A stretch of DNA of 64,000 bases from a virus, in the IMG/VR virus record IMGVR_UViG_3300027800_000004, positions 1 through 64,000 of that record; one strand, 5' to 3'. The first letter of the stretch is position 1, and every line of letters begins with the position of its first letter. Below, one piece after another: positions 1,079 through 31,201 of this stretch. The notes below the pieces were generated by a model that made no database searches, had not been told where the DNA came from, and saw nothing but the letters and a program-made list of their open reading frames with translations. A program made the position numbers and the translations under genes.

Positions 1079-1100
1079 ATTTGCTGAATTAATTTCTCAA

Positions 1101-1131
1101 CAAATATAGCAAACAAATTTAATAAAACAAT
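1101..1131 (-). promoter_or_regulatory. Bacteroidota sigma70-type promoter for the replication genes
   Basis: TATATTTG (-7 consensus TAnnTTTG) at 1108-1101, with TTG 19 nt upstream. Confidence 0.6.
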
Positions 1132-1134
1132 ATT

Positions 1135-1584
1135 TCAATTAAAATTAAACGCCACTCCTGTCAGAAGAAAGAAATTTTTAGTAGAGATGTTGTACCCACC
1201 ACCGAAAGCAATGTATTGCCACAACTGTACGGTGCCGGCCAGAGAGATTTCTGCCGGAGACACCTCGCCTATGTCTGTGCCAAATAACACTATTGCGCTA
1301 AAGGCATAGTCCATATATGGCTCTCCGTTCTGTTCGGTAAAATGGCCTATGGTAAGACCTGTTCCCAAAGAAGATAGGGGGGTAACGAGAACCTGATCTG
1401 AGAAAGTGAACTGCATTGCTGATACCTGTACTACTGGCCGGAACAGCCATTGGACGTTTACCCCCCTATCGTTTGTTGGTATCTTATCCGGAACCCTTCC
1501 GAAGAAGTTGTTCCATTTGTCCTGGGCATTTAAGGATGTTGCAATAACTCCTAATAATGCCATAATTAGTAATGTCTTTTTCAT
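1135..1584 (-). CDS. Exported, probable small outer-membrane beta-barrel-like protein
   Basis: Signal peptide MKKTLLIMALLGVIATSLNA|Q; alternating amphipathic strands; aromatic C-terminus GVAFNFN. Confidence 0.55.
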   Translation of the reverse strand: MKKTLLIMALLGVIATSLNAQDKWNNFFGRVPDKIPTNDRGVNVQWLFRPVVQVSAMQFTFSDQVLVTPLSSLGTGLTIGHFTEQNGEPYMDYAFSAIVLFGTDIGEVSPAEISLAGTVQLWQYIAFGGGYNISTKNFFLLTGVAFNFN

Positions 1585-7310: not shown

Positions 7311-7330
7311 TATTAAAGGAATGACATGCT

Positions 7331-16092: not shown

Positions 16093-17733
16093 CTATTGTT
16101 CAAGGGCCTTGAATAGATCCTCGGTGGTTTTCGTTTTATCCTCAAACAAATTATTGATTTTGGACGTACTATTCAACTGTGTCTCCATATCATTGATGTA
16201 CTTGTCATACGGGGTCCAATCTTGCTTATTCTCTTTTGCTGCCGTAAAGAGATCCTGTTTTACCTCATCATAAGGTACAATGGATGTTTCTGTATAAGAC
16301 TGCGTTCTTCCAGAGGAATCTGGCATGTAAATATTGAATTGATCTCCCAACGATGCTGCCTGTCCTTCCTTGACCTGTTTGTACGACAATCCAAAGTGAA
16401 TGTATGGTTTGTACTGTATCTGGTGAGGCGGAGCCATGCCCTGTTCCCTGGCACTGGCGTTCTCAAGTCTTATCTGCTCAAGAACATGCAATGGTATCCT
16501 CTCACCTGGCTTGATTGTCTCGGTAATCATCTCCGTACCCCTGGGATCCTTGACCTTTATTGCCATTGCTTTTGTGGCAACCGGGTACATGTTTGCCTCT
16601 ACCGGAACTGCCGGGATTGCCTTGCCCTTGCCTTCTACCTGGCCGGTGATAGCATTTATGTTATTGGCAGAACCCATGATAGTTATGTTCTTAAACCCAA
16701 AGGTTGCTGCAATAGGTATGCGTCCAACACCCTCATAGGGTACAACTTTGTCACCACTCTTGCTTGATGTGTTGTAGTAGATATCCCTGACCTGCGGTTG
16801 GACAGGGTAATTGCCCGTAGTATCTTTCTCTGGAATACCATAGCCGGCTCCCATACCCCCTGTTCCGGAAATCCCCTGCTCATAACCTTTCTTTACCGGA
16901 TATTCTGGACCGTAATTCTGCATGATCCAATCCTCTTTGTTCATCACTCCCTTTTCCGGATCGGCCTCAAACATCTTATCTACGGCATTCTTTATGTTTG
17001 TAGGTGCGGCCTTATATGCCTTGAGGATACCGGCTTTTGCTCTTGCAGGATCAACACCTTCCCAGGTTGACTTGCCCCATTTACCAGTAGTCTCGTCAAT
17101 AATAAATCTACTGACGGTCTTATCTGTGCCAGGAACAAATTTCGGTATAGCCGCTTGAAAATATTTACCGGCATCCACCGGCCTTGCCTTACCAACAATA
17201 AGTTCTTTTGACAACGGACTTCTTCCAAGAACGCCACCCTCTGCTTTCATCCATTTATCAATCTGTTCCTGTGTTGCATTAATGTCAATGTCTCTCTCTT
17301 CTTCTGGTTTCCCGGCCTGTTGATTTATTATTTTTTCAACATCGCCAATCGTTGCTTTCTCCTGCTGCCAGACATCGTGTTTCTGTTTAATGTCTGCCAA
17401 CTTTGTTCTGAATGCTTTTGCAATCTTCCTCTCTGCTCCGCTGGAAGGATCGTAGATGTTATATCCTTTACTTCCAAGTTCTACATATTGATCTTTAAGA
17501 TTTTCAAGTTCACCACTTATCTCATCATAGCCCTGCTGATCTTCCCATCCCTTGATGTCAAGGTCAATGAGTTTCTTCCCGGCCTCAAAGTCCTTATCTC
17601 TTTTTTCCTTGAGTGCCTGACCATATTGTAGCCTTTCAAGCCGTACTCTTTGTACTGCCTGTACCGGATCGTATGATGATGGCCCGAAAAATGGTGCCGC
17701 TACAAAGCCGGGATCTATTTTACCGTTTGCCAT
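16093..17733 (-). CDS. Putative ejected/cargo virion protein
   Basis: 546 aa with helical N-terminus; lies between the tail stabilization gene and the giant protein, as in podoviruses. Confidence 0.45.
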   Translation of the reverse strand: MANGKIDPGFVAAPFFGPSSYDPVQAVQRVRLERLQYGQALKEKRDKDFEAGKKLIDLDIKGWEDQQGYDEISGELENLKDQYVELGSKGYNIYDPSSGAERKIAKAFRTKLADIKQKHDVWQQEKATIGDVEKIINQQAGKPEEERDIDINATQEQIDKWMKAEGGVLGRSPLSKELIVGKARPVDAGKYFQAAIPKFVPGTDKTVSRFIIDETTGKWGKSTWEGVDPARAKAGILKAYKAAPTNIKNAVDKMFEADPEKGVMNKEDWIMQNYGPEYPVKKGYEQGISGTGGMGAGYGIPEKDTTGNYPVQPQVRDIYYNTSSKSGDKVVPYEGVGRIPIAATFGFKNITIMGSANNINAITGQVEGKGKAIPAVPVEANMYPVATKAMAIKVKDPRGTEMITETIKPGERIPLHVLEQIRLENASAREQGMAPPHQIQYKPYIHFGLSYKQVKEGQAASLGDQFNIYMPDSSGRTQSYTETSIVPYDEVKQDLFTAAKENKQDWTPYDKYINDMETQLNSTSKINNLFEDKTKTTEDLFKALEQ

Positions 17734-17742
17734 TTCTATTAA

Positions 17743-18432
17743 TTATTTAATTCCGAAAGCCGGAACATTAAGTGTTGTATTTTGCTTTTTGGTAATCTGA
17801 GCAATAATATCTGCCAAGTCTTTCTCGGAAACTGCTGATCCTCCTGTCCCTTTTCCTAATAATGAGGAAAGGATGTCCGTATTCTGCGTGGCAGTAGCAA
17901 CGCCCCCGATATTCTTTACTGCCGCCATGACGTTCTGCCCACCGGACTCTCTCAATGCCTGTGCTGCCTGTGCTGCCTGTAAGTATGGCATTTCCTTATT
18001 CCAGTAGTCAACTCGTCTTTCTTCCTGATAAACTGGTCCCTGCAGAACATCCATGTACTGACCCTGTGCCTGGTATCTCTGCTGTGCTGCCTGTGCTGCC
18101 ATCTGAGTATAGTTCTTTTGCTGACCAAGAACAAGTTTATCGAGCAATCCATAAGCCTCTGCACCGGATCCAAGTTGTGATGCTGCCCTCAGTCCTGATG
18201 CGGTTGCTCCGGCAATCTCATTGCGATAGATCTCCCCTCCGGGAATATCCTGGTCAAGTTGACGGGCATAGGCATATCCCTGAAGGTCCTTTATGGACTG
18301 TGAGGTTGTTGCTTTTGGTCGGGGATATTGCTCTTCAAGTTTATCTGCCTTCTTCTCCTGAAACGCACCCCAGATACCTTGTACTGCGGATGTCGCTGCC
18401 CCTATTAATGCTGCTATTGTTACTGGATCCAT
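17743..18432 (-). CDS. Putative ejected (internal virion) protein
   Basis: MDPVTIAALIGAATSAVQG N-terminus, Ala/Gly/Gln-rich helices, typical of podovirus ejection proteins. Confidence 0.55.
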   Translation of the reverse strand: MDPVTIAALIGAATSAVQGIWGAFQEKKADKLEEQYPRPKATTSQSIKDLQGYAYARQLDQDIPGGEIYRNEIAGATASGLRAASQLGSGAEAYGLLDKLVLGQQKNYTQMAAQAAQQRYQAQGQYMDVLQGPVYQEERRVDYWNKEMPYLQAAQAAQALRESGGQNVMAAVKNIGGVATATQNTDILSSLLGKGTGGSAVSEKDLADIIAQITKKQNTTLNVPAFGIK

Positions 18433-18444
18433 GATATTGTCTTT

Positions 18445-21123
18445 TTAGCCACTTCTTTCACTGTCTGTTGATAAAACTATTACTGAGTAAATCCTTACTT
18501 TTTCATCGTGTTCCTCCGTTCTCAATCTTACATAGCAATATCTTCCTCTTATCTCTCTCCCGTTCATCGTCCTGGCGTTCATTGTTGCAAAGTTACCAGG
18601 ACTATTCTCATCCTTGAGTATTCTGCCATAATAAATGCCCTCCGACTTATTCCAAACAGCAACATACGTTTCCATAAGCACATAAGAGGCTTCATAGGGA
18701 ATTAGGATATATCTGCTATTGCAATCAAACTGATGATCGGCATAGACGGCTAGAGAATTGAAAACCTTATTCTTTTCAGGATTGACATTGCTGACAAACT
18801 GAACATCACCTACCGTTGGAACCTTTGCCCATTCAAGCCAACCCTGTCCCTCATCCACATTCATTATGTAAAGTTTCTGACGATACATGTGGGCAAACCA
18901 TATTCCCAGATGAACATAAGATTCTGTCTGTTGATCTATCCTGGTTATCCACCGGCCATGATGTTCGCTGAAGATCGCTCCCCAGACTACTCCGTTCATG
19001 TTCCAGTTAACCCAGATCTCATTATGCTCTACATTGGCACCAGAATTAACCAGTAATAAGCGAGATCCACCTTGAAGCGTTATCCATGCTGAAAGATCCC
19101 GGAACCATCTCTTCATCTTATAGTCAGAGATAGGTAGTTGTCCATTGGGTGCTGAACGTATGTATTTACCTTCGCTATTATCCCAATAATACAAGTTCCT
19201 ATCATTAACCAAAACACTGTCCGGGTGCTGGCAGCCATAATTTGTTGACTCTTCCCTTGATGTGCCAAGAAGATTCTGAACCAAAGTGTAATTGCTTAAT
19301 CCTCCATCGGCACTGAATGTCTGCACCCTGTTGATATAGATGCTTGTTTCTTTGTACATCTGAAGGACCTTGAGAGTAAATCCTATTTCTCTCAATGCAG
19401 TTATGTCTCCATTCTTTCTTGGTAAATCAACAAAGTCATTATACATGAATAGGGCAATATTGTTTACCTGAGTACCCTCAAGCAGTCTGCCTCCGTTTCT
19501 TATTCTCTCATGCAATGCTACCTGTTGCTGACTCACATCCCATAAGAATGGCCAACCCTGAGAGGTTAAGGCTGTCTGAAGATCCCACCAGTCACTCGGA
19601 GCAATGCTTTCTGCATAAAATGGCACTACGTTTACCGTTCCGGATTCATAGTTCAGTCTGAAATACTTCCAGCAATCATTGGCTGTATTAAATATCTGTG
19701 CCTTTGTTGTGGTATTTCCATAAAGATCTATTACTTGGTCTATGTCTCCTTTATGATATTTATTGCCATTTGCGTCAATACCTATCTCAAAGACCATCCC
19801 TGTACCATAGAATATGGTTGTTCCCAGACCTTTTCGTGGCCTATAAACTTCTACGAGAATATCATTTGCACCCTCAACCCATTCCGTAGGGGCATTTACG
19901 GCCTGTACGATAAGCCACTCGCCTCCAACCGCATCACCATACATGGTACTGGTTCTCTCAATCTCATAATCGAAGTTTTCCTCAAATTCCGTAACATCAC
20001 CAGAACCAGTATCTATTGTGCCGATAAGCCTTAATCTATCTCCATGCTCCCATATATAGTCAGGAACTTTCCATCGGAGATTATTAATTCTTGTTTCATC
20101 CAAGGTATCCTGAATCATTACTGCCCATCTGTCATGAGTAAGATCCTTGATGTCATTGATCCTAATCTGAAGGAAATAATCCATAGATATATTTCCGGAA
20201 TAAACAATCTCGTAAGTTGTTGCCCAATCCGGGGGCCGGTGATTTATGTTAAAAGTGAGATAAGCAATAGTTGTTGTAAGAACATCCGGTAATCCATTTG
20301 GATTACCTTTCATATACCAGGGCAAATAAATATCGAAGTCATCTGTCTTAATGACTGAGCATCTTCTTGCTATTTCATCTTTATATACAAGTCCAAAGCC
20401 ATGAACTGCACCATACTTCAATACTGGATACTTTGTGACAGTTCCATAAGAAGTGTAATATGCGCTAACCTCATAGCCATAATCCGGGAAAACATCAGTA
20501 AAGTTTCCTTCGCTTGGTGGTGGAAATGTATGATAAACTCTATCTAATGGCCAGAAATCAAGCCAGAATGGATATACAACCGGATCTGCATCTGAAGTTA
20601 CTCTTGAGGGTCCCCAATTAGGATGAGCCAACATTGCAGCGTTTAGACCTACCGTCACATCATACCAGTTGTCTCCTGCTTGGGCCACATAAGATACAAT
20701 ATATGCGATGTCATTCTTTGTATCATCAACTCTTAGATAATAAACATCACCGGAAGTAACAGGATTTGGTATAAGAACATGGGCGGAGACATAAAATCGA
20801 GTGTTTCTTGTTATTTCTCCTCCTGGCGTTGGATCCCAAGAATATGGAGGTTTTCTTTGTGAAATATAAACATCCAGATTAATCGTGGTAAAATCTACTG
20901 ATATGTCCGAATAATCAACATCAACCGACATATCTGGCTTAATAGTATCATACCCTTCAGTTATCTTTCCAAATACAACCGCATTGCCGGATATCAACTC
21001 CATGTGTCCAGCTTTTATTGGCACATAGGTAAAGGGTATGGCTATCGCTTCGGCAGCGATTTGTTCTTTAATCCTGTCGTTGTAAAACTTTATGTCAATA
21101 TCTTGATTATGTCCGTAAAGCAT
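18445..21123 (-). CDS. Tail stabilization/muzzle protein (P22 gp10-like, crAss-type), C-terminal fragment
   Basis: FYND...VPIKA...ISGNAVVFGKITEGYD; LKYG...GLVYKD...R; PPDWATTYEIV; YGCQHPDSV; PISDYKMKRWFRD; NKVFNSL; EGIYY; NGREIRGRY. Confidence 0.75.
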   Translation of the reverse strand: MLYGHNQDIDIKFYNDRIKEQIAAEAIAIPFTYVPIKAGHMELISGNAVVFGKITEGYDTIKPDMSVDVDYSDISVDFTTINLDVYISQRKPPYSWDPTPGGEITRNTRFYVSAHVLIPNPVTSGDVYYLRVDDTKNDIAYIVSYVAQAGDNWYDVTVGLNAAMLAHPNWGPSRVTSDADPVVYPFWLDFWPLDRVYHTFPPPSEGNFTDVFPDYGYEVSAYYTSYGTVTKYPVLKYGAVHGFGLVYKDEIARRCSVIKTDDFDIYLPWYMKGNPNGLPDVLTTTIAYLTFNINHRPPDWATTYEIVYSGNISMDYFLQIRINDIKDLTHDRWAVMIQDTLDETRINNLRWKVPDYIWEHGDRLRLIGTIDTGSGDVTEFEENFDYEIERTSTMYGDAVGGEWLIVQAVNAPTEWVEGANDILVEVYRPRKGLGTTIFYGTGMVFEIGIDANGNKYHKGDIDQVIDLYGNTTTKAQIFNTANDCWKYFRLNYESGTVNVVPFYAESIAPSDWWDLQTALTSQGWPFLWDVSQQQVALHERIRNGGRLLEGTQVNNIALFMYNDFVDLPRKNGDITALREIGFTLKVLQMYKETSIYINRVQTFSADGGLSNYTLVQNLLGTSREESTNYGCQHPDSVLVNDRNLYYWDNSEGKYIRSAPNGQLPISDYKMKRWFRDLSAWITLQGGSRLLLVNSGANVEHNEIWVNWNMNGVVWGAIFSEHHGRWITRIDQQTESYVHLGIWFAHMYRQKLYIMNVDEGQGWLEWAKVPTVGDVQFVSNVNPEKNKVFNSLAVYADHQFDCNSRYILIPYEASYVLMETYVAVWNKSEGIYYGRILKDENSPGNFATMNARTMNGREIRGRYCYVRLRTEEHDEKVRIYSVIVLSTDSERSG

Positions 21124-21130
21124 CTGACAT

Positions 21131-21556
21131 TTAACTTACATAGATTATCCCAAGTGAGTTCCATTCTATCGTTGAAGTGCCGTTTGTGACAATCTGGTTA
21201 GTGGTAAAATCAATGATACATCTTATTGGAGATGTTGACAAACTTCCTCCTACAAACGCATAGACACATCCATAGCGGTAACTTAGTGTTGCCGAAGGAC
21301 CTATAACAACATTGGCCGCATCGAGGAAAGCATTGTTCCCATCATAGGATTGCACTCTTCCGGTAATAGGCATACCTTCTACTGGATAAGGTCCACTGGC
21401 TGCGATCCTCCTGTCTACAACACCACTCTGTCCTGCGAATTGGTGTTGTGCGGGATCGGGTGTATATTGGTCATTAAGAAGCATAAGTCTTAAATCTTCT
21501 GCTACCCAGGCATCAACTATTGCCTTTTTTACAAATCTTGGTACTACGCTTGCCAT
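21131..21556 (-). CDS. Phage tail-associated structural protein
   Basis: 141 aa; LRLMLLNDQYTPD...H and FLDAANV...IDF...VTNG.STIEWNSLGI resemble a widespread tail-fibre-associated family. Confidence 0.5.
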   Translation of the reverse strand: MASVVPRFVKKAIVDAWVAEDLRLMLLNDQYTPDPAQHQFAGQSGVVDRRIAASGPYPVEGMPITGRVQSYDGNNAFLDAANVVIGPSATLSYRYGCVYAFVGGSLSTSPIRCIIDFTTNQIVTNGTSTIEWNSLGIIYVS

Positions 21557-21572
21557 GATATTTCGTTTTTAA

Positions 21573-24362
21573 TTAATTCAAAGGTTCTGTCCATAAAAGT
21601 ATTGTTAAAGTATCACCTGGAGATGATGCAACTGTCATATTTACTGAGAATGGTCCATTAGATTCCATGTTATTCATCTCAATGTAAGTCGGGGTAACGC
21701 CATAAACATATCCGGAATTATTTCTTCTAATCATTATTCTCAAATTCAATAACGCACCTTCGCCAAATTGTGAGTGCCAGGGAATACAATCAAATACAAC
21801 CAATGTTGATCCTACTGCATTATAAGCATTATACTCATCAATATACATGTGAGTTTCACTTGGATGATTAATAACATTAACAGATATTGGTAGCGGTGCA
21901 GCTCCCTGGGTTACGGTTAATAAGACGTTATTCAAATAAGGAGTATTATCCTCTATCGTAATTACACCGGTCCTCTCTGCTCCGTTGTTCTGAGAATTTG
22001 GGTATAATGCCAGTGTTGTTCCGGAAGCGATCTGGCCTCCTTCCAGTACCTCTACCGCATCATCGTCATTCCAGACAGTCATCCATGCCGGTATATCCCT
22101 GACAAACATCGGTATTGTTGGAACTGAATGGGTAATAGTTGTTTCATACTTGATACCGACTCCGGGTGCGCCAATATATTCAAATGCTCCTATGGACGGT
22201 ATCGCGTTCCAACCATAGCCATCTCCGTCATAACCATTGGCACCGCCCAGGTTAATCCCGGCATTTCTTAGATCTGAACCAGTTTCTAGGTGCAAAAAAT
22301 CTAGCTTCGGCAAACTACCATCACTTTGTCTTACACCATCTAGGACTGAATCTATAAGACTTTTAAAATCCGCATCTGTAACTGTAACTACACCATTCCA
22401 TGAATTATGGTCATTGGTTGCTCCGGCTGCTACTACGGCATTAACATTACTGTTTGAATATGCAATATTGTTTCTTAGGATATTTGCGATACCAAGTGGT
22501 CTGTTAAATTCAAAGCCGTTATAATTTCCAAAGGCCACATTGTTATATAACCACATGATGCAACTGAAATCTGCCGTATTCTGGTCAAATCCATTAACCA
22601 TATTTCTAACAGCCAATGAATTTTTTACGGTTCTCAGATGTTCGGTTGCATGGTCAGTAAAGCAAGGTCCTAGTTTAAATCCATTGCCATCAGCCCCACC
22701 ACCATAAGGAGTTATTCCTTCATCACTATACCCATTCCAAAACGCCCAGCATCTATCTATCTCAATATACCCATCGTGGTCAAAGAAATCCCATCCATCA
22801 TCACAGCAACACCATGCCCTACACCCATAGAAATATAGAAATGTAGAGGTATCTCCACCTGTCGCATTAAATCCGTTTGCATTTTCATAGTTGTGATAAG
22901 GATCTGCAAGGTGATGAGCATCACAGTTTCTCCAAGTAATATGATGTGATTGGTTCACTACAAAACCATATCCACCAAGATGGTCCGCATCGCATAATTC
23001 GATAGTACAATAAGTACATGTTGTATGGAATATTCCCGACACTCCTCCTGTCTGCAATGCTGTCTGTGCTAGTCCTGTTACTCTTAATCCCTTAATATTT
23101 AGATAGTCACAACTATAAACATAGAGTGCAATGATGTATGTATAAGTCGGAACTACATTATCAAGATTTAATACTGGAGATTCGTCAGGATAATTTAAAA
23201 TATTGATTGGATTTAATGCTGTACCATGAAGATGATGCCATCTGCTAAATGCGGATGCTGAATTGGCATAGGTCGTTCTGTAAATACCTCCTCTGATATA
23301 TGCTAGATCTCCGGCAACCATTACGTCATCCAATCTCTCCCATGTTTTAAATGGTGAATTAAATGATCCATCATTAGTATCACTTCCCCAGTTTGCTACA
23401 TAATAATCTGCACCAATATCTGTTGCTGAACCATATATCCTGGCTCCGACCTGCCATGTCCCATCCTGATTTTGATAATCAGTTAGTCTATCAAGATCCC
23501 AAGTAGCACCCAACGCTAAACCAGTAAGATATGTTGTTCCAAGGTTTACTCCATAATTCAATCTTGCGCGTGGAACGAAAGTGATGGTATCAAAGAAATT
23601 TGGATTTATAACAACCGAATGAGTATCATAACCTAATGCCCTCCATTGCGCCCAAGTATATATTGAACCCAGATAATTGAATGATGGAAGATTATCTCCT
23701 TCTTCGCACCAATATATGTTGTAGTCACACTCAAATCCCGTCAGACAGCCGGCATTGCCTACCCAGATACTATTAATCCCTTTATAGACTGTGTAAAAGA
23801 TATTGTTCTTAATTTTTGCACCGGACGCTGAACCAACGGGACTTATATCTGAATTTTCATAAACCTCTACTAGAGATCTGTTACAAACTGCACTGGTAAG
23901 TGAACTGTAAAGGGTGTTGTTATAAATCTTAATCCCATTCATTCCCTTAACAACTATCCCTGGCTTTCCGTTCTTGACGATATTGTACGCAACCATCCCG
24001 GATGTATCCGTCATGCCATTGCTCTTGCGTACAATGCCCATTGGCACTCCGTCAAGATAATTGTATTTTACATGGACATTAATGTTGTATCCGGTAAATA
24101 TTCCGTGCGTAATGATACTTAATGAGGGTGTTCCTCCCCAGACTAACTTGTTTCCGTAAATAAGCGCACCATCGAGATTGTTATTATAAGCATTGACATT
24201 CTCATCTCCAGAGCATAGCATATATCCCTGAGTATTTAAAGAAGAAATGAAGTTTCTCCTATAAATAAGATCAGTATCCGTAAGTCTGGGGATATTAACT
24301 CCTGTCCAGACCGGGGTATCTGTATTAATGGTTGATGTGCCTTCTATGAGTAATTGAGCCAT
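21573..24362 (-). CDS. Double right-handed beta-helix protein with PL9 (pectate lyase L-like) domain and C-terminal BACON-like/Ig domains; putative tailspike depolymerase
   Basis: YYVANWGSDTNDGSFNSPFKT, ENANGF, DDGWDFF, DGNGFKLG (PL9-like, catalytic Lys position); NNGAERTGVITI...LTVTQ (BACON-like). Confidence 0.7.
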   Translation of the reverse strand: MAQLLIEGTSTINTDTPVWTGVNIPRLTDTDLIYRRNFISSLNTQGYMLCSGDENVNAYNNNLDGALIYGNKLVWGGTPSLSIITHGIFTGYNINVHVKYNYLDGVPMGIVRKSNGMTDTSGMVAYNIVKNGKPGIVVKGMNGIKIYNNTLYSSLTSAVCNRSLVEVYENSDISPVGSASGAKIKNNIFYTVYKGINSIWVGNAGCLTGFECDYNIYWCEEGDNLPSFNYLGSIYTWAQWRALGYDTHSVVINPNFFDTITFVPRARLNYGVNLGTTYLTGLALGATWDLDRLTDYQNQDGTWQVGARIYGSATDIGADYYVANWGSDTNDGSFNSPFKTWERLDDVMVAGDLAYIRGGIYRTTYANSASAFSRWHHLHGTALNPINILNYPDESPVLNLDNVVPTYTYIIALYVYSCDYLNIKGLRVTGLAQTALQTGGVSGIFHTTCTYCTIELCDADHLGGYGFVVNQSHHITWRNCDAHHLADPYHNYENANGFNATGGDTSTFLYFYGCRAWCCCDDGWDFFDHDGYIEIDRCWAFWNGYSDEGITPYGGGADGNGFKLGPCFTDHATEHLRTVKNSLAVRNMVNGFDQNTADFSCIMWLYNNVAFGNYNGFEFNRPLGIANILRNNIAYSNSNVNAVVAAGATNDHNSWNGVVTVTDADFKSLIDSVLDGVRQSDGSLPKLDFLHLETGSDLRNAGINLGGANGYDGDGYGWNAIPSIGAFEYIGAPGVGIKYETTITHSVPTIPMFVRDIPAWMTVWNDDDAVEVLEGGQIASGTTLALYPNSQNNGAERTGVITIEDNTPYLNNVLLTVTQGAAPLPISVNVINHPSETHMYIDEYNAYNAVGSTLVVFDCIPWHSQFGEGALLNLRIMIRRNNSGYVYGVTPTYIEMNNMESNGPFSVNMTVASSPGDTLTILLWTEPLN

Positions 24363-24365
24363 TGC

Positions 24366-25550
24366 TTAAGTATCATCAAATTCATCATAATCCCATTCAA
24401 ATTCATCTTCTGTTGCCAGTAGAAACATGTTTATTGGCGTAGATGTCGGTGTGCCTAATGCCAGTCCCAAAAAAGCTGGTAAGGAAATTCCACTACCCGT
24501 TACAATCGGGAGAGGAATTGTAATAACCAGAGTTGTTAATTCTGTCTGTAAAAGCGTATTGGTTTCATAGGCCCTCTCTTCAGCACTAAACTTATCAATT
24601 TCTTCAACCAAAAACCATGTTGACGGATCCTGACTGCTCCTGCCGATGATCTTGATCTTCCTGACCTCCTCTGTCCCGGTGTTTACCCTAATCTTAAGAT
24701 AATTGTTTAGTGAAATAACCTCTGTGGCCAATCCTGTTGCTATCTCTTCCTCTCCGTTGGGCATTGCCACTATACAGGCCGGAGAATAGGTACTCTCTCT
24801 CCAGTCCATGTAAACATAGTTATACGCAAACTGAAAGAGAGTCTGTCTTAAGTTATTAATTTTTCGTGTATCATCAGTCTGATATTCAACTGTAGGAGCA
24901 AGTTTGGGTGGCATTGGGGCAAAGTAAAAATTCTCCACCTTCATGGTGTAATAGCAATCTTCTACCATACAAAGTCTGGTCCAATATGCTGTCCATGCAA
25001 TAGGATTATAACCGATGTTAGATATCACGCATTTGTACATGTATTTGCCTTCCGAAATGATCTGGTTCTCATAGTAATAAATATCATCAGTCCATTCGGT
25101 AATGCTTGTGTTTTGACCATATCCTATGCCGTGATAATATGAGGTCTTTGCTCTCTCAATGTCTATCTGGTAGATCGGGTTCAGGTTATCAGTCCATATT
25201 ATCTTTCCATTGATAATTCTGGCATTATAGATTTTATAATCCTCGTCAAAACCTATTGAATTTGCAGCATCATAATAGACAACATTTTGCGCCCTGGTGT
25301 CTATGTCCACTTCTATTATCCATGCTGCATGATAATAATTATCAATGTAGAAGAGATATAATTTCCTATTCTCCGGATCAACACATTTACCATTTAGCAA
25401 AATGTTTGAGACATACGAATCAACTTCCGGAAACGGACCGGGAGATGACCGTAATAACCTCACAGATAGATAGTGAGATTTTAAAGCAAAAGAATTTATT
25501 GCTTCTCCACTATTATGTGCCAGGTCTATTGTCTGTACAAGTTGTCCCAT
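24366..25550 (-). CDS. Tail stabilization/muzzle protein, middle fragment
   Basis: GKCVDPENRKLYLF; IGF...IINGKIIWTDNLNPIYQIDIERA; FQFAYNYVYMDWRESTYSP; VRKIKIIGR...WFLVEEIDK. Confidence 0.7.
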   Translation of the reverse strand: MGQLVQTIDLAHNSGEAINSFALKSHYLSVRLLRSSPGPFPEVDSYVSNILLNGKCVDPENRKLYLFYIDNYYHAAWIIEVDIDTRAQNVVYYDAANSIGFDEDYKIYNARIINGKIIWTDNLNPIYQIDIERAKTSYYHGIGYGQNTSITEWTDDIYYYENQIISEGKYMYKCVISNIGYNPIAWTAYWTRLCMVEDCYYTMKVENFYFAPMPPKLAPTVEYQTDDTRKINNLRQTLFQFAYNYVYMDWRESTYSPACIVAMPNGEEEIATGLATEVISLNNYLKIRVNTGTEEVRKIKIIGRSSQDPSTWFLVEEIDKFSAEERAYETNTLLQTELTTLVITIPLPIVTGSGISLPAFLGLALGTPTSTPINMFLLATEDEFEWDYDEFDDT

Positions 25551-25552
25551 TT

Positions 25553-27553
25553 TTATGGTGTATCGCCCCAGAATATGTCAAGTAAAAATGCTTCCGCAAG
25601 TAACTCTATCTGAGCATCTGTTAATACAATTCCCGATTTAATTATTCCTATTGCTGTAATTTCATACGGTGGACTATCGGAATATCTGACAACCGTTCTA
25701 TGATAATTAAAGTCAACGAGATCTCCAGTAGTCACTTGTTCCTGTACTCCGGCACCGGTAAACCATAAGTTGTCCTCGTCATCCAATATAAAGTCAGGAG
25801 AACTTTCTAGTACAAATAATGAGCCTGAAGAATATGGAATATAATTGGTTGCAAAATCTCTCACCAGGATTGCTATTCTTCTTCCGTCTGTTGCACTTAT
25901 TAAGTGATCGCTTTCTATTTCTCCAATCCACAGGAAATCTAAGAGATCTATTACGCTTCCCCAGGCCAGAAGATTTATCAGAACGATTGCATCTTGAGTT
26001 ATAAGATGATAGTAAGATGTCATGCCGGATCCATCTGGTGCTGCATTGGTCCCTGACAAGTCTAGCCTATCACCAAGTCTCCATTCCCCTACTCCCGTAA
26101 CCGCATCAAATGTTGTAAGGAATAAACTAACGCTGGTAGATATAAGGTTATTGTTTAAGAAATCATAGTTCCGTTGGCCTGCAACATCTGTACCCCATGT
26201 CGCATAAGGAGTAACCGAGTCCAGAAGATTTTCAGATGCGTTAAGTATCCTAAGTTTTGGTAATGATGCCGGTAATGTGAGGATTAGTAATTCATTATTC
26301 CGCAAATCGAGTATTTCAAGATCTGCAATAGTGAGAGTATTGACAATAAAATTGATTAATGAATTATCATTTGCAATAAAGGACTGCCACAAAACTGTTC
26401 CTGTCGGGAATACGATATTATTAATGTTATTATTGGAAATATCAATCGTTCCAAATCTTGATAGGTAAGTCATACTTATCGCAATCAGATTATTATTGGA
26501 GATATCAAACTTACCTGCGTTGGTTCTCCATGTATATGGAACTGATATTGCCGTTAATAGATTGTCTGATAGATCTATCTCTGCATAATCTGTCAATGAT
26601 CCAAATTTCCATGTTTGTAGTGAAATACTTGTTAATAAATTTGAGGACAGATCAATTTTCTCAAGACTTGTACAAACAGGAGATATTGTGATACTCGTTA
26701 TTTCTACTTCATCTGCGACAATAGATTTAAGATGTGAGCAGTTATAAATATTAATGGTTCCACCACCGGCCAGATAGGTGTGTTTAATTGCTATTGGCAC
26801 ATCATCAAGAAAATACATCTGGCCAACACCATCTCCCCAATCTATATATATAAATCCATCTCCGGTTAATGTCATTTCAAATTCACCGTCAATGGATGTT
26901 ACTATAACTACATGTATCAAAATACTCGGTACAATTTCATCATATAACCAAAATTGAGTTCTGGTCTTTAGTAACTCATAACCAAAATCTCCATATTTCC
27001 CTGCTCCAAGTGCCGAAAAACCGTATGAGTCAACTGCATCTGTGTTTGGAGCCAGCCACCGGACTTCGCCAGGTACTTTTAGTTTGCCTCCGGCTGTTGC
27101 CTGTCCTCCAAGATGATTGAATAAGATAAGCCAGTCTGCCAGTGATGCTATCTTCCATCCATCAGGACAGAATCCCGGTTGGTGGATCATCTGCCAATTA
27201 TAGAGGCCGCCATAAATATCCCTGTTTGCCTCAATATCTCCATAAACCTTTGATCCGAAATAATTCCTGGCATAGTTCTTCTTCATCCAGGTCTGGGTGC
27301 CTATTGTTACACTCTCATATCCTTCATAGACAAACCCTCCTCCAATAGAACCTCCATAATAAGTTGGTAGAATAGCGTCAATAATCAGTTCTACCTCACC
27401 CTGTAATGTCTCCATAATACCAATGCCCTGCTGCTCCTCGCTTGAGGCAACGCGCATGTTTAAGGCATCGGTATATTCGCCTGGCTGAAGATCGGCAGGG
27501 TTATCGTCCTTATTAAGACCTATGTTAAACCTATGGAGGTCCTTGTTCTGCAT
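25553..27553 (-). CDS. Mosaic tail protein: muzzle N-terminal ~58 aa + truncated Fib_succ_major domain + PKD-like segment + leucine-rich repeats
   Basis: FNIGLNKDDNPADLQPGEYTDALNMR (muzzle N-terminus); VTIGTQTWMKKN, YGGLYNW, CPDGWKI, AGGKLK; IDWGDG; repeated IDLSxNxL LRR units. Confidence 0.7.
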   Translation of the reverse strand: MQNKDLHRFNIGLNKDDNPADLQPGEYTDALNMRVASSEEQQGIGIMETLQGEVELIIDAILPTYYGGSIGGGFVYEGYESVTIGTQTWMKKNYARNYFGSKVYGDIEANRDIYGGLYNWQMIHQPGFCPDGWKIASLADWLILFNHLGGQATAGGKLKVPGEVRWLAPNTDAVDSYGFSALGAGKYGDFGYELLKTRTQFWLYDEIVPSILIHVVIVTSIDGEFEMTLTGDGFIYIDWGDGVGQMYFLDDVPIAIKHTYLAGGGTINIYNCSHLKSIVADEVEITSITISPVCTSLEKIDLSSNLLTSISLQTWKFGSLTDYAEIDLSDNLLTAISVPYTWRTNAGKFDISNNNLIAISMTYLSRFGTIDISNNNINNIVFPTGTVLWQSFIANDNSLINFIVNTLTIADLEILDLRNNELLILTLPASLPKLRILNASENLLDSVTPYATWGTDVAGQRNYDFLNNNLISTSVSLFLTTFDAVTGVGEWRLGDRLDLSGTNAAPDGSGMTSYYHLITQDAIVLINLLAWGSVIDLLDFLWIGEIESDHLISATDGRRIAILVRDFATNYIPYSSGSLFVLESSPDFILDDEDNLWFTGAGVQEQVTTGDLVDFNYHRTVVRYSDSPPYEITAIGIIKSGIVLTDAQIELLAEAFLLDIFWGDTP

Positions 27554-28329
27554 TATCTCTTCGGTGTTTGCCTTGAGGTACTGAACAACATCTGCCTGTA
27601 CTCTTCTGCCGTAAAGATATCTTGGAAGTCACGAAGCATCGCTACTGCCTTGTCGTGATTGTCTTCTCTCCTTGCCTTCTCTGCCTGTGATATTCGCGGA
27701 TCATTCTCTACCATCTGCCAGAGAATATACGTCCTCACTGCCGGCTCTGCTTCTCTGGGTATGGTCGTGGATCCGGTCAGGTTCACTCCGGATGAGATAT
27801 ATTCAAGGACGATATAATTGTCCGTGATGGTGCCTGTAAAGGCGAATGTGCGTCTTTCTCTGTCAAACCGGTATGAAGCATCACTGATACCGCCAGACAT
27901 CCCGTAAAGGCCTCCTACGAACTGGCCGCATCGGATATGATCTGAGAAATAGACCAATGATGAAGCATCTGTCGTGTCATTTGCATCTGTGTTGCTGAAA
28001 TTCTCAAGTCCGTCTGTTGATGTCCTGGGGAGAAGGATCTTATCGTGACGATGAATCACCTTCAGTTTCCCATTGGACGGAATACCCACTTTCAGCCAGT
28101 CAACAAAGTCTGCCGGCAGAGATACAACCTTACTCGTTGGATCCACGTTTATATAGACAACCTCAATATTATCAAGATGCCAGAGATTGAGTTCGGTATA
28201 ACCTTCGATAGCCAGTTGCATCAAATGGAAATAATCCCTCATTGTGTAGTCTTTTACCCTGTTCAGGGTTGACATCACAACCTTTCTCAGACTGACTACC
28301 CCTGCTATTTTTGGTGCTGCTATACTCAT
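27553..28329 (-). CDS. Tail tubular/ring protein (crAss-type)
   Basis: 258 aa; VSLPADFVDWLKVG, IVLEYISSG, TIPREAEPAVRTYILW; position directly before the muzzle gene. Confidence 0.7.
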   Translation of the reverse strand: MSIAAPKIAGVVSLRKVVMSTLNRVKDYTMRDYFHLMQLAIEGYTELNLWHLDNIEVVYINVDPTSKVVSLPADFVDWLKVGIPSNGKLKVIHRHDKILLPRTSTDGLENFSNTDANDTTDASSLVYFSDHIRCGQFVGGLYGMSGGISDASYRFDRERRTFAFTGTITDNYIVLEYISSGVNLTGSTTIPREAEPAVRTYILWQMVENDPRISQAEKARREDNHDKAVAMLRDFQDIFTAEEYRQMLFSTSRQTPKR

Positions 28330-28337
28330 CTCTCAAC

Positions 28338-29018
28338 TTATTGATTAGGCCTGTTGGCGTTCATGTCGTTTACCGTATCCTCCGGCAGTTTTGCCCTTAA
28401 CAACTCGATGACCTGTTTTACAAGCAGATCTTCCTGTCCTGATGGCATTGCTACATCATCATAATCATCAATCTGATCCAGAGGAACGATCATCTTTACG
28501 TTAAAATATGTTAAGGTTGGTGGTGCTATGTATAATGATATCGGAATATGATCGCATTTGAGAATATGCGTTTCAATGCCGGCTCCCGTGTCGTTCTGTT
28601 CCAACCGGAAATATGGCGTTGTGTCTGTGGTATAAACTTCCAACTCGCTGAAGATAGGTATTGCGCCACTTTCAAGGTAGGCAAAGGCTATGTTTTCATT
28701 TGTTGCAGATGACACCTGCCGGATCCCCATATTGTTTGGTAATTGTATTGGTGGGTAGGGAAGTCTTAAATTGCCTGTCAAGAAACCTCCGACAACTGCA
28801 TCATTATACAGAGCAAGTGAGTAAGTTCTTGTCCAGGCATCCAGTTGACTATAATCGCTGAACTTTTTACCATTAAGCCATGTCATATAGACGGCCTGAT
28901 TATAGGCTATCTCCAGATGTTTCTTAATGATCTCCGGATGGTATTGTGATAACATATCATCCGGCAGTTCTGATGCCAGGAAGTCAGAAACAAGTTCAAC
29001 GAGATTGATCTTTTTCAT
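28338..29018 (-). CDS. Tail ring/adaptor protein
   Basis: 226 aa; LPYPPIQLPNNMGI and DDVAMPSGQEDLLVKQVIEL; synteny with crAss-like ring genes. Confidence 0.6.
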   Translation of the reverse strand: MKKINLVELVSDFLASELPDDMLSQYHPEIIKKHLEIAYNQAVYMTWLNGKKFSDYSQLDAWTRTYSLALYNDAVVGGFLTGNLRLPYPPIQLPNNMGIRQVSSATNENIAFAYLESGAIPIFSELEVYTTDTTPYFRLEQNDTGAGIETHILKCDHIPISLYIAPPTLTYFNVKMIVPLDQIDDYDDVAMPSGQEDLLVKQVIELLRAKLPEDTVNDMNANRPNQ

Positions 29019-29206
29019 TTCTTCTTAGATTTCTCAATTTTGCGACCACCGATATCAATCATCTTCTTACCGGCACTCGTCATCACATTTGACTTGAAAG
29101 TAGGCTTACCGGCCTTTCTAGCGGTCAGTCTGCCACCCATGTAGGCTTTCATGCCCGTATCAACGAGCCTCTTGCCTCTCTGGTACTGTTTTGTTTTATC
29201 TGGCAT
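29015..29206 (-). CDS. Small basic protein
   Basis: 63 aa, Lys/Arg-rich; ATGA overlap with the downstream gene. Confidence 0.5.
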   Translation of the reverse strand: MPDKTKQYQRGKRLVDTGMKAYMGGRLTARKAGKPTFKSNVMTSAGKKMIDIGGRKIEKSKKK

Positions 29207-29208
29207 GA

Positions 29209-29358
29209 TTACTTCTTTTTTGGTGTTTTACCCTGTGTCCAACCGCCTCCCTTTTTTCTCTTAATTCCCGTGCTTGATGAGCATATTGCATAAGCGGAGG
29301 ATTTGCTTCTGCCCTGTGCCTGTACTTTGCTTACACATCTTTCTAGTTTCTTTGGCAT
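29209..29358 (-). CDS. Small basic phage protein (49 aa)
   Basis: Hand-translated MPKKLERCVSKVQAQGRSKSSAYAICSSSTGIKRKKGGGWTQGKTPKKK; fills the gap between ring genes; below the ORF-track cutoff. Confidence 0.6.
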   Translation of the reverse strand: MPKKLERCVSKVQAQGRSKSSAYAICSSSTGIKRKKGGGWTQGKTPKKK

Positions 29359-29369
29359 CTCTTTTAGTT

Positions 29370-30076: not shown

Positions 30077-31201
30077 TTAGTATTGAATGAATATTTCACC
30101 TTCCTTGAAAAACATCTTACCCGTCTTTAGCGGTATGTTTACCGTATCTCCTGAGATAACGTACCCTTTCTCATAAAAGATCGTCATTCCCCCTTCATAC
30201 ACCCTCGCCCCCTGTTGCCAATACATACCATTCTGTCTTACCAAAGGTACATCTTTCCCAACCTCCCAATGAGCATTAGCAGCAATACCCATATTAAACT
30301 CAGTCCAGGTTCCCCATTCCACTCTCCATGATGGTACCAAACTTTCTGTATCAATAAAGTATGGATCTCTTAACTGAGAATGAGTATCATATCCGTGTTC
30401 TCTCCACTGGGTTAATGTATGTCTCACTCCGGCAATAGTAAAGATCGGTTCTCCTGCCTCACACCAATAAACATTATAGTCACATTCAAATCCCTGTAAA
30501 CAATCTTCTTCCATTACGTTGATATTAATAATCTGTCTTTTGGTATAGAAGATATTGTTCTTGATCTTTGTGTTATGTGCCCTGCCGAATGCGTCAGGAT
30601 GACCGGAGGATGTGTCGGTGTTCATGTAAACATCAATCAGACCGCGCCAGGTTCCGATGCCTGGACCAACATATACCGAATCTTCGCTATAAAAGGTATT
30701 ATTATAAATCCTTACTCCGTTCATTCCTTTAACTACAACGCCAACGGCAGGAGGATTACGAATGATATTGTAAGCCACTACCCCGGAAGTATCAGTCAAT
30801 CCATTTGACTTACGAACAATACCCATTGGAACGTAATTGAGATAATTATACATGATCCTTGCGTCCGTATTATATCCTGTAAATATCCCATGAGTAATTG
30901 TATTGGCATTCTGATCTCCGGTCCAGTTGAACTTGTTACCAATTATCTGTTCACCACGAAGATTATTGGTATATCCTGACGGCACTTCATATCCTGCTTC
31001 CAGCATATACCCGTTTTTGTTACAGGTCTGAACATAGTTGTTCTTAAAGGTGAAAGTCGTAGGAACGGTTTTTGGAAAGACTACCCCATATCCTACATCG
31101 CAGTTGATGGTATCAATCTTTGTCTGTCCTTCAATGGTCAAAACAACTTGCGCCGATAAAATCGGCGGCAATAATAACATTATGAATATCAGCCACTTCA
31201 T
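30077..31201 (-). CDS. Secreted right-handed beta-helix protein, paralog of the N-terminal domain of the 929-aa tailspike
   Basis: Signal peptide MKWLIFIMLLLPPILSA|Q; shares ITHGIFTGYN, VPMGIVRKSNGxTDTSG, VVKGMNG, KIKNNIFYT, GFECDYN with 21573..24362. Confidence 0.7.
   Translation of the reverse strand: MKWLIFIMLLLPPILSAQVVLTIEGQTKIDTINCDVGYGVVFPKTVPTTFTFKNNYVQTCNKNGYMLEAGYEVPSGYTNNLRGEQIIGNKFNWTGDQNANTITHGIFTGYNTDARIMYNYLNYVPMGIVRKSNGLTDTSGVVAYNIIRNPPAVGVVVKGMNGVRIYNNTFYSEDSVYVGPGIGTWRGLIDVYMNTDTSSGHPDAFGRAHNTKIKNNIFYTKRQIININVMEEDCLQGFECDYNVYWCEAGEPIFTIAGVRHTLTQWREHGYDTHSQLRDPYFIDTESLVPSWRVEWGTWTEFNMGIAANAHWEVGKDVPLVRQNGMYWQQGARVYEGGMTIFYEKGYVISGDTVNIPLKTGKMFFKEGEIFIQY

Follow-up and report, generated by a model that had tools for sequence, protein, structure and literature searches.

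The window analysed here, a 64,000-nucleotide stretch of DNA, derives from an uncultured freshwater phage of ~76 kb, kin to the Cellulophaga phi13:2 group, in which the tail muzzle is spread over three ORFs in two reading frames with a conserved gene, p141, lying between them. We consider it probable (about 0.78) that this is a heritable three-gene crAss-type muzzle (podophage nozzle), the pieces of which co-assemble while their free C-termini carry exchangeable modules. The locus comprises five ORFs of 666, 394, 929, 141 and 892 aa, all on the minus strand (Table 1). The G+C content is 0.39-0.40 across 20-26 kb, lower than in the flanks, and promoter- and terminator-like sites occurred only at shuffle level.

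According to the proposed mechanism, an ancestral single gene would have been cut at two domain boundaries, once after the N-terminal segment of ~60 residues and again after IG1, ahead of blade 3 and IG2. The three products would most likely co-assemble, six copies each, into one muzzle: the N-terminal strands would come from piece 1, blades 1-2 together with IG1 from piece 2, and what remains of the propeller, along with the distal tip and C-terminal domain, from piece 3. Each cut would leave a new free C-terminus, one on piece 1 and one on piece 2, and these ends would serve as mounts for exchangeable carbohydrate-binding or -degrading modules. In this genome the piece 1 modules would be Fib_succ and LRR, and a separate mosaic PL9 protein, presumably retained on the virion despite being detached, would replace the piece-2 extension while keeping the ancestral extension domain at its C-terminus.

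Table 1. Features of the muzzle locus and related genes (window coordinates)
Feature	Coordinates	Strand	Basis or remark
Upstream anchor gene, 258 aa	27553..28329	-	PHROG 13977 virion structural protein, E 1.6e-16
Piece 1 (whole ORF, 666 aa)	25553..27553	-	
Piece 1a, muzzle N-terminal segment, residues 1-62	27368..27553	-	motif GLNKDD..GEYTDALNMR
Piece 1b, truncated Fib_succ_major (FISUMP), residues 82-204	26942..27310	-	Pfam PF09603
Piece 1c, variable C-terminal display part, residues 205-666 + stop codon	25553..26941	-	LRRs + unassigned C-terminal domain
Piece 2 (whole ORF, 394 aa)	24366..25550	-	
Piece 2a, residues 1-48 of the 394-aa ORF, split-clade-specific	25407..25550	-	
Piece 2b, predicted propeller blades 1-2 + IG1 domain, residues 49-325	24576..25406	-	
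Piece 2c, low-confidence C-terminal tail, residues 326-394 + TAA stop	24366..24575	-	
In-frame junction TAA-GCA-ATG, piece 2 / PL9 gene	24360..24368	-	read off the sequence
Mosaic PL9 beta-helix gene, 929 aa	21573..24362	-	Pfam PF22842
p141, 141 aa	21131..21556	-	PHROG 644 'unknown function'
Piece 3, 892 aa: predicted IG2/crass-type distal region, propeller blades 3-7, C-terminal domain	18445..21123	-	
Downstream anchor gene, 229 aa	17743..18432	-	follows the muzzle in all relatives
374-aa paralog of the N-terminal module of the PL9 gene	30077..31201	-	

Tiling and predicted fold of the three pieces

The muzzle motifs quoted in the original prediction are present in the ORFs to which it assigned them, and its proposal that one muzzle fold is divided among the three ORFs was supported by tiling of both sequences and predicted structures. 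Using the 1288-aa single-chain metagenomic relative P0089 as reference, residues 12-58 of piece 1 correspond to residues 12-58 of P0089 (E 9e-9), residues 54-334 of piece 2 to 71-413 (E 9e-39) and residues 3-891 of piece 3 to 407-1287 (E 4e-130), a tiling that, judged from the alignments, is far beyond chance. Pieces 2 and 3 also match the same protein family, PHROG 14478, at positions 164-278 (piece 2 residues 206-320) and 964-1134, respectively. In addition, gp120 of Cellulophaga phage phi13:2 (Pachyviridae, Baltivirus; NC_021803.1), a single virion structural protein of 1613 aa, is homologous to the N-terminal motif, to piece 2 and to piece 3 (hhalign probabilities 96.9% and 99.5%, the latter for piece 3 with E 5e-23). 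The N-terminal motif occupies the extreme N-terminus of split muzzles, of fused ones, of canonical muzzles of 1700-2800 aa and of gp120. Identity to the nearest relative is 86% for the first ~60 residues of piece 1 and 58% for pieces 2 and 3, so that, by this comparison, the muzzle is most conserved in the former.

A tblastn search of 50,697 deposited phages with pieces 2 and 3 gave no match at 1e-5, and IMG/VR searches with single-protein seeds found nothing; the IMG/VR relatives described here were recovered with an alignment seed. The Pfam family crAss_MUZ_C (PF25729) had no match in the window's piece 3 at E <= 0.01; it was detected in the piece-3 relatives P0022 (28.4 bits), P0094 (30.7) and P0097 (40.2), which are 24-50% identical (cut-off 27). 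The muzzle protein gp44 of Bacteroides phage phicrAss001 (PDB 7QOK/7QOL; Bayfield et al., 2023, PMC10172136) was not reached by PDB sequence searches with a piece-3 profile, three full-length relatives or an N-terminal profile, and was recovered by fold comparison only, not by HMM searches of the PDB. Since the profile of the N-terminal segment finds nothing in the PDB, the equivalence between the N-termini of piece 1 and gp44 is drawn solely from homology among full-length muzzles.

The gp44 structure was the best structural match for the models of both pieces 2 and 3. Piece 2b was modelled with a pLDDT of about 90, the piece 2c tail with 33-57, and piece 2a had low pLDDT when folded by itself. 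The piece 2 model matched 7qol_P/7qok_A best in both aligners (Foldseek E 2e-5), and its residues 49-322 superimpose on gp44 68-269 (VIA Z 8.5, rmsd 4.2, 184 aligned), with a modest margin over unrelated propellers. For piece 3 (pLDDT 74) the best matches were the same two chains (Foldseek E 2-3e-17), residues 26-887 superimposing on gp44 286-1371 (VIA Z 15.3, 581 aligned, rmsd 11.3), followed by the nozzle proteins of SU10, Pa223, VP1, P22 gp10 (Z 12.1, rmsd 4.0), GP4 and Sf6. The TM-scores against gp44, 0.23-0.33, are as low as one would expect from multi-domain models of moderate confidence. Based on these models, piece 3 is predicted to have a beta-propeller core with a nozzle-type domain arrangement.

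The split muzzle is predicted to have the same order of parts as gp44 (N-terminal segment, blades 1-2, IG1, IG2 plus distal domain, remaining blades, C-terminal domain), and it occupies the same genomic slot, after a ring/adaptor-like gene. The break between pieces 2 and 3 falls at the end of IG1, which in gp44 spans residues 163-292 (PMC10172136). Both gp44, a single chain of about 1370 residues, and phi13:2 gp120 agree with the earlier statement that characterised relatives make one polypeptide, in contrast to the three genes plus p141 found here. The predicted distal (crass) region is much smaller than in gp44, with about 470 residues ahead of the propeller in piece 3 compared to about 700. 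Furthermore, PMC10172136 attributes the length variation of crAss muzzles solely to sequence inserted into IG2 and the crass domain, whereas in the locus described here adhesin domains are appended at both breaks.

Inheritance of the split and authenticity of the stops

Piece 3 is a separate gene in all 28 distinct close relatives, and the gene order piece 1 - piece 2 - p141 - piece 3 is found in every close relative with recovered upstream sequence except two, L047, which has no p141, and L049, in which pieces 1 and 2 form one ORF. The latter keeps the Fib_succ segment between the two pieces, and its continuous chain shows at the sequence level that the topology of pieces 1 and 2 is compatible. 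In the phylogenetic tree one branch (SH-aLRT 95) has all 28 distinct piece-3 sequences on the same side, and the sister group consists of single-gene forms; the three-gene architecture dates to one old event. The whole clade has both breaks in common, as well as p141 and the truncated Fib_succ domain, at 40-60% protein identity, and these features are therefore old, while the geometry of the junctions differs among relatives (overlaps of 1-36 nt, or gaps). The split architecture recurs across dozens of metagenomes that are independent of one another, and contigs of ~72-78 kb are among those that carry it. The original prediction had counted the routine occurrence of separate genes in close relatives against itself; as found here, this occurrence argues for a functional, inherited multi-chain muzzle and not against it.

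The single-gene muzzles of the sister clade (P0089, L012-L014, L019, L065, L066, L069, L070 and L073; 1190-1290 aa) share 25-37% identity with the three pieces along their entire length and have the same flanking genes. In contrast to the split locus, theirs is a single ORF that lacks both the Fib_succ insertion and the extension after IG1, and p141 is absent. According to the terminase (TerL), the nearest cultured phages are Cellulophaga phi13:2-type Pachyviridae and Maribacter and Flavobacterium phages (27-32% identity); phi13:2, with a terminase 27.5% identical, represents the nearest cultured lineage, and there was no crassvirus among the TerL matches listed. In Bayfield et al. (PMC10172136) phi13:2 serves as the outgroup. 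The term 'crAss-like' is best read here as crAss-related. The phi13:2 genes gp118-gp121 are syntenic with genes of the window, gp119 and gp121 occupying the positions of the upstream and downstream anchor genes, and differ in that the slot contains neither a p141 homolog nor a Fib_succ insertion. The upstream anchor gene, which gives a weak match to SU10_adaptor (E 0.01), immediately precedes the muzzle gene in relatives of the split, the fused and the canonical type. By homology and position it probably encodes the last ring/adaptor protein, the docking site of the muzzle, and the synteny is consistent with a muzzle placed below this protein.

The stops that separate the muzzle pieces are real. 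Contigs from three runs show zero differences over 21000-27700, with the TAA-GCA-ATG junction identical in the three independent assemblies, and an independent fourth run bridges 24949-25585, the junction of pieces 1 and 2. The concern that the stops were assembly errors, raised in the original prediction and addressed with these assemblies, can be dismissed. A second form of this explanation, a broken gene in a defective phage, is at odds with the conservation of the architecture across metagenomes, and as no point in favour of either form was found, artefact or decay is barely credible.

Appended modules, the PL9 gene and p141

The original prediction identified a truncated Fib_succ_major domain and LRRs in the first ORF and a PL9 beta-helix in the 929-aa ORF, all of which were recovered with Pfam. 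The Fib_succ_major match in piece 1 (65.8 bits) covers profile positions 1-153 of 187, i.e., the domain is incomplete, and relatives carry the same truncation at about 50% identity across the clade. An LRR_4 match follows at residues 295-337. Piece 1c is not conserved; relatives have instead a second Fib_succ copy, fn3, Lcl_C or LRR, and residues ~530-603 of piece 1 recur in other ORFs of relatives. Piece 2a is without counterpart in fused muzzles, and residues 10-36 of piece 2 align with the last 27 positions of complete Fib_succ domains (hhalign E 0.042, weak), so that piece 2a may represent the missing last strands of this domain. Relatives align to piece 2 up to residue ~350-394 and then diverge into extensions containing BACON, fn3 or Ig domains (total lengths 554-1230 aa), while piece 2 of the window is bare, with no fused extension. 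Within the genes for pieces 1 and 2 the muzzle-derived parts are the most conserved, and the elements that vary are the C-terminal extensions. The tail tip probably also mounts host-recognition parts. The earlier idea of inserted foreign modules stands for the adhesin-type domains of pieces 1 and 2, which vary among relatives, and not for Fib_succ and p141, which are conserved fixtures.

Of the loci examined, only that of this genome has the PL9 gene, which follows piece 2 in the same frame with only TAA-GCA in between, exactly between the piece-2 core and the domain that relatives fuse to piece 2. Its product is a mosaic. Residues 319-629 correspond to a Pel9A-like right-handed beta-helix (63.5 bits for PF22842, cut-off 25.2), by which it is a predicted lyase of polysaccharide lyase family 9. 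Residues 4-316 are paralogous to the product of ORF 30077..31201 (47% identity over 326 columns, E 7e-82), the likely source of this beta-helix-like module, of which a free-standing homolog exists at the equivalent place in L011/L026. The last ~190 residues (~741-929) are homologous to the extension fused to piece 2 in relatives, residues 741-927 corresponding to 399-581 of the fused piece-2 gene in L011/L026, and similar extensions occur in L029, L030, L038 and L048. A likeness of PL9 residues 620-740 to the piece-2 core proved to be alignment drift, PL9 and piece 2 sharing no similarity, and a BACON identity of the C-terminal domain found no Pfam confirmation. L018 provides a second case of an in-frame TAA junction. 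In L047 the gene after a bare piece 2 is in another frame and encodes 618 aa with no relatives among the loci.

Homologs of p141 are present in 18 relatives at 41-62% identity, directly upstream of piece 3, and absent from the fused-muzzle loci and from L047. The original prediction had labelled it a tail gene, a label unsupported by the only annotation obtained, a PHROG of unknown function. The suggestion of a GP4 gp80-like fibre comes from an Atlas feature score of 0.87 only and is no more than a lead, which profile searches of the PDB and Pfam did not bear out. The actinophage homologs are unannotated, and that of Gordonia phage GMA1, in the one neighbourhood inspected, lies by lysis and integrase genes, not by annotated tail genes.

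Alternative explanations and significance

The original prediction regarded the locus as a landing pad for nested insertions particular to this genome, and a recent 3.4-kb insert bracketed by a direct repeat can be envisaged. The PL9 gene fits such a scenario well: it is found only here, it separates the piece-2 core from the extension domain, its N-terminal module copies ORF 30077..31201, and the G+C content is lowered over this region. However, the breaks, the truncated Fib_succ and p141 are clade-wide, and there is no significant direct repeat bracketing 21102..24557; therefore, the insertion model holds only for the PL9 gene, the single window-specific element, and as an account of the split it is unlikely. 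It is even less probable that piece 3 alone is the muzzle, pieces 1 and 2 having become independent fibre proteins that keep ancestral sequence and do not co-assemble. Pieces 1 and 2 are indeed fibre- or adhesin-like over much of their length, but the start of piece 3 corresponds to gp44 residue 286, so that it is without blades 1-2 and the N-terminal segment and would not be able to form the propeller alone; in addition, the muzzle-derived parts are where the genes for pieces 1 and 2 are most conserved, which is unexpected for vestiges.

Rejoining of the pieces by read-through, frameshifting, an intron or (split) intein trans-splicing would draw on the TAA-GCA spacing of piece 2 and PL9, on the in-frame TAA in L018, and on L049 as evidence that pieces 1 and 2 can exist as one continuous chain. 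Against it, pieces 1 and 2 are in different frames with variable junction geometry in relatives, the gene after the bare piece 2 of L047 is out of frame, pieces 2 and 3 are separated by an entire conserved gene, p141, and the intervening sequences encode conserved folded domains. The stops that end piece 1, piece 2 and p141 are all TAA, which is rarely read through, and the long ORFs in the rest of the window follow the standard code. No Rfam match was obtained in 17500-29500 and no Hint/intein Pfam domain was found. Intein splicing needs C, S or T after HN; close to its start piece 3 does have a conserved HN, but the residue after it varies and is Q in the window. Altogether, rejoining is highly improbable.

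A further hypothesis, which we put forward as tentative and rather doubtful, is that the gene boundaries are deliberately placed inside small adaptor domains. Piece 1 would supply positions 1-153 of the Fib_succ domain and the N-terminal ~40 residues of piece 2 its remainder, a second divided unit would consist of the piece-2 tail and the C-terminal domain of PL9, and the chains would be clipped together by domain complementation. If this were true, the muzzle would be a plug-and-play scaffold in which receptor-binding or depolymerase cassettes are swapped with their stop and start codons by recombination, leaving the essential muzzle core untouched.

The literature searches returned no description of a split crAss-type muzzle. 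A precedent for a three-gene muzzle is the nozzle of the Pseudomonas podophage A1002, solved by cryo-EM and published in 2026, which consists of gp39, called nozzle-rope, and gp42, called nozzle-base; the platform and propeller parts that each contributes, blades included, are partial and complementary, and fibres dock on one of the two (PMC13730344). Judging from the gene numbers, two small fibre genes, gp40 and gp41, separate the halves there, as p141 does here, although no homology was found between p141 and A1002/GP4-type fibre proteins. The two cases differ in that A1002 belongs to an unrelated lineage with two pieces and different break points, whereas the three-piece arrangement described here is predicted from sequence and models.

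The muzzle is a hallmark of crAss-type virions, their gatekeeper, and all descriptions so far are of one giant chain. The three-chain muzzle of a diverse clade from the environment shows where this fold tolerates cuts, and how a core tail-tip protein may be used as a mount for exchangeable host-recognition modules. In practical terms, muzzle fragments in such genomes should not be annotated as pseudogenes, and the three-chain muzzle offers a testable design for host-range engineering in laboratory phage-host pairs. Together with A1002, it suggests that short-tailed phages have repeatedly arrived at a modular host range through nozzle fission coupled to the docking of fibres.

Gene order and domain content of the muzzle region

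The muzzle (tail-tip protein) is encoded in the window by three genes, referred to here as pieces 1, 2 and 3, which lie in a region where all genes are on the minus strand with little space between them. The motifs from which the original prediction had concluded that a single crAss-type protein is spread over three ORFs were found in these ORFs as stated. Pfam searches detected in piece 1 a Fib_succ_major domain that ends at profile position 153 of 187, together with LRRs, and in the 929-aa product of the PL9 gene a Pel9A-like beta-helix; no Pfam domains were detected in piece 2, piece 3 or the 141-aa protein p141. Pieces 2 and 3 matched positions 164-278 and 964-1134, respectively, of PHROG 14478, a virion protein family of 1474 positions. 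In crassviruses the slot after the tail genes holds the genes for cargo proteins and the virion RNA polymerase, to which the two giant ORFs of the window may be compared.

Features of the muzzle region
Feature	Coordinates	Strand	Remarks
374-aa ORF	30077..31201	-	paralog of PL9 residues 4-316
Virion protein	28338..29018	-	directly ahead of 27553..28329 in transcription
Virion protein	27553..28329	-	PHROG 13977; weak SU10-adaptor match
Piece 1, 666 aa	25553..27553	-	ORF
Piece 2, 394 aa	24366..25550	-	ORF
PL9 gene, 929 aa	21573..24362	-	ORF
p141, 141 aa	21131..21556	-	ORF
Piece 3, 892 aa	18445..21123	-	ORF
Two genes after piece 3	17743..18432 and 16093..17733	-	the giant ORFs come next
Two giant ORFs (1909 and 2919 aa)	1581..16090	-	slot after tail genes

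Correspondence of the pieces to single-chain muzzles

PDB sequence searches with a piece 3 profile, an N-terminal profile and three full-length relatives did not reach the solved structure of the phicrAss001 muzzle, the single-chain protein gp44 (7QOK/7QOL), whereas the predicted folds do reach it. This muzzle was the best PDB match of the piece 3 model (pLDDT 74; Foldseek E 2-3e-17), residues 26-887 of which span gp44 286-1371 (VIA-align, Z 15.3), and the next matches by VIA-align were the nozzle proteins of Pa223, SU10, VP1, P22 gp10, GP4 and Sf6. The piece 2 model, with a pLDDT of about 90 across residues 50-325, spans gp44 68-269 with its residues 49-322 (Z 8.5), gp44 being the top match in both aligners. 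The predicted folds of pieces 2 and 3 bear out the expectation that the fragments tile one muzzle fold, which according to these models is of the crAss type. When their coverage of gp44 is set against the published domain description (Bayfield et al., PMC10172136), the break between pieces 2 and 3 is placed at the end of the IG1 domain; that between pieces 1 and 2 lies past the N-terminal ~60 residues, ahead of blade 1.

Database searches with piece 3 retrieved many full-coverage relatives of 870-960 aa (47-62% identity) and more remote ones of 1100-1370 aa. The single-chain relative P0089 (1288 aa) is tiled by the three pieces in strict order, its residues 12-58 corresponding to piece 1 residues 12-58 (E 9e-9), 71-413 to piece 2 residues 54-334 (E 9e-39) and 407-1287 to piece 3 residues 3-891 (E 4e-130). 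The extreme N-terminus with its motif is shared by the first gene of split loci, single-gene forms of 1190-1290 aa and muzzle proteins of canonical size (1700-2800 aa). Judged by the terminase, the closest phages in culture are those of the Pachyviridae around Cellulophaga phage phi13:2, followed by Maribacter and Flavobacterium phages (27-32% identity). Where the window has three genes, phi13:2 encodes in the syntenic slot gp118-gp121 one virion protein of 1613 aa, gp120. By hhalign, gp120 residues 6-309 are homologous to the N-terminal motif together with piece 2 (probability 96.9%, E 2e-10), and gp120 shows homology to piece 3 as well (probability 99.5%, E 5e-23).

Inheritance of the split and reality of the stops

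Loci of relatives, 25 from IMG/VR and 64 from JGI metagenomes, were mapped by blastp. Every close relative with upstream sequence displays the same order, namely two anchor genes, piece 1, piece 2, p141, piece 3 and two further anchors. Identity between the window and the nearest relative is 86% over the N-terminal 60 residues and 58% over pieces 2 and 3. The 28 distinct stand-alone piece 3 sequences fall on one side of one branch (SH-aLRT 95) in a quick maximum-likelihood tree of the piece 3 region, and the single-gene forms on the other (support 100). These include a sister group (L012-L014, L019, L065, L066, L069, L070, L073) with a single gene of 1190-1250 aa and no p141. As the tree is midpoint-rooted, the polarity from a single gene to a split one is based on both the cultured outgroup and the crassviruses having one gene. 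The split is common to the whole clade and old. The original prediction had held that routine separate encoding by close relatives would speak against its reading of the locus; they do encode the pieces separately and in the same order, and this points to an inherited multi-chain design under selection. On one contig of 216,338 bp (C687J13896_1000012; L032, L033, L051) the locus occurs three times, in identical copies spaced about 72 kb apart; this contig almost certainly represents a circularly permuted phage genome of ~72 kb that was assembled as a concatemer.

Departures from this organization were also observed. In L049 (5953-9558), pieces 1 and 2 form one unbroken ORF of 1201 aa (N-terminal segment 8-59, Fib_succ 83-215, piece 2 core 378-761, then an extension), which is probably a secondary re-fusion since it is nested within the split clade. 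L018 (contig shared with L071) nests in the otherwise single-gene clade and has the N-terminal segment as its own ORF (1-705), followed by an in-frame TAA, four codons and the ATG of a 1186-aa ORF (718-4278) covering pieces 2 and 3; this appears to be an independent cut at the same site, or else a recent nonsense mutation. L047 encodes a bare piece 2 of 378 aa followed by an unrelated 618-aa gene, without p141. In L042, a single 6.9-kb contig in which an error is possible, piece 3 is cut again into ORFs of 438 aa (2958-4274) and 484 aa (4326-5780); the cut corresponds to ~residue 404/424 in piece 3 of the window, close to where the distal region gives way to the propeller blades.

That the stops are an assembly artefact, or the locus a decayed gene, is excluded by the agreement of contigs across runs and by the architecture kept in relatives, the comparison of relatives being the stronger case. 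Contigs from three freshwater metagenome runs, one of which is possibly the source sample, showed no differences over 21000-27700, and a contig from a fourth run spans 24949-25585. Rejoining of the pieces by recoding or splicing is unlikely. Piece 2 and the PL9 gene do share one frame, with TAA-GCA between them; this may be a coincidence (1 in 3), and nothing beyond the shared frame supports read-through of this TAA. Against rejoining, reading frames and junction geometries vary, the intervening domains and p141 are conserved, neither Rfam matches (17500-29500) nor intein domains were found, and TAA is the codon at each of the three stops read. Piece 3 has at residues 5-6 (21106..21111) a His-Asn pair with a surface likeness to the intein C-terminal motif; the pair is consensus in the stand-alone forms (alignment A1) and is not present in single-chain P0089. 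An intein reading was rejected, as the residue that follows varies (Q here) and there is no Hint domain. The direct repeat claimed to flank a 3.4-kb insert was not found.

Variable modules and proposed assembly of the chains

Among relatives the variation lies in the C-terminal parts of the first two pieces. Piece 1 (363-1107 aa) consists of the N-terminal 60 residues, a Fib_succ segment about 50% identical and truncated as in the window, and a C-terminus that bears fn3, Lcl_C, LRR or another, complete Fib_succ copy; piece 2 (554-1230 aa) consists of a conserved stretch of ~350-390 aa and an extension with BACON, fn3 or Ig-like domains. The piece 2 of the window is unusual in stopping right at the conserved core. 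Specific to the window is the detached, mosaic PL9 gene behind the in-frame stop. Residues 4-316 of the PL9 protein are 47% identical to the 374-aa ORF of the same genome (E 7e-82), a free-standing equivalent of which is found at 1058-2164 in the nearest relative (L011/L026); residues 319-629 constitute the Pel9A-like helix, and ~741-929 are homologous to the extension fused directly to piece 2 in L011/L026, L029, L030, L038 and L048. In the simplest reading, recombination placed a beta-helix module, bringing its own start, between the piece 2 core and the ancestral extension. With the ancestral extension domain kept at its C-terminus, the detached protein may still bind the same site. At 20001..26000 the G+C content is 0.39-0.40, below the 0.43-0.46 of the neighbouring virion genes, as would fit an exchange of modules in piece 1, piece 2 and the PL9 gene.

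Piece 3 has 988-1049 aa in a subgroup of loci (L008, L009, L010, L015, L017, L020, L054, L057, L058, L085) to which 985-1066-aa proteins such as P0041 also belong. Its C-terminal propeller half is kept (51-57% identity to the window protein), and the IG2/crass-type distal region, which makes up the first ~500 residues, is unalignable to the window protein. Judging from these alignments, the muzzle tip itself seems to be a module that can be swapped or evolves fast.

p141, a member of PHROG 644 (unknown function), is 41-62% identical in 18 relatives, always directly ahead of piece 3; neither the single-gene clade nor L047 has it. Distant homologs (25-31% identical), all unannotated, occur in siphophages of Gordonia and Mycobacterium and in MiniFlayer, a satellite phage of Streptomyces (e.g., KR053195.1 21171-21515 and OQ357865.1 5249-5602); in Gordonia phage GMA1 the homolog lies between lysis genes and integrase, away from the annotated tail genes. 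A language-model lead from p141 to GP4 gp80-type fibre proteins (score 0.87) finds no backing in profile searches.

In the literature searched, no split crAss-type muzzle is described. For the Pseudomonas podophage A1002, cryo-EM has resolved a two-piece nozzle (PMC13730344), in which gp39 and gp42 pack together to complete the nozzle fold, with the fibre genes gp40 and gp41 between them; the place of p141 between the two halves here is analogous. By analogy with gp39 and gp42, the N-terminal segment contributed by piece 1 and the blades 1-2 contributed by piece 2 would pack against piece 3 and complete the fold. Single-gene muzzles have nothing that corresponds to the first ~48 residues of piece 2, which are poorly folded alone in the model; residues 10-36 of piece 2 weakly match (hhalign, E 0.042) the last 27 positions of complete Fib_succ domains, exactly the part that piece 1 is without. 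Should piece 2 indeed complete the domain in this way, pieces 1 and 2 would be clipped together by a split lectin domain.
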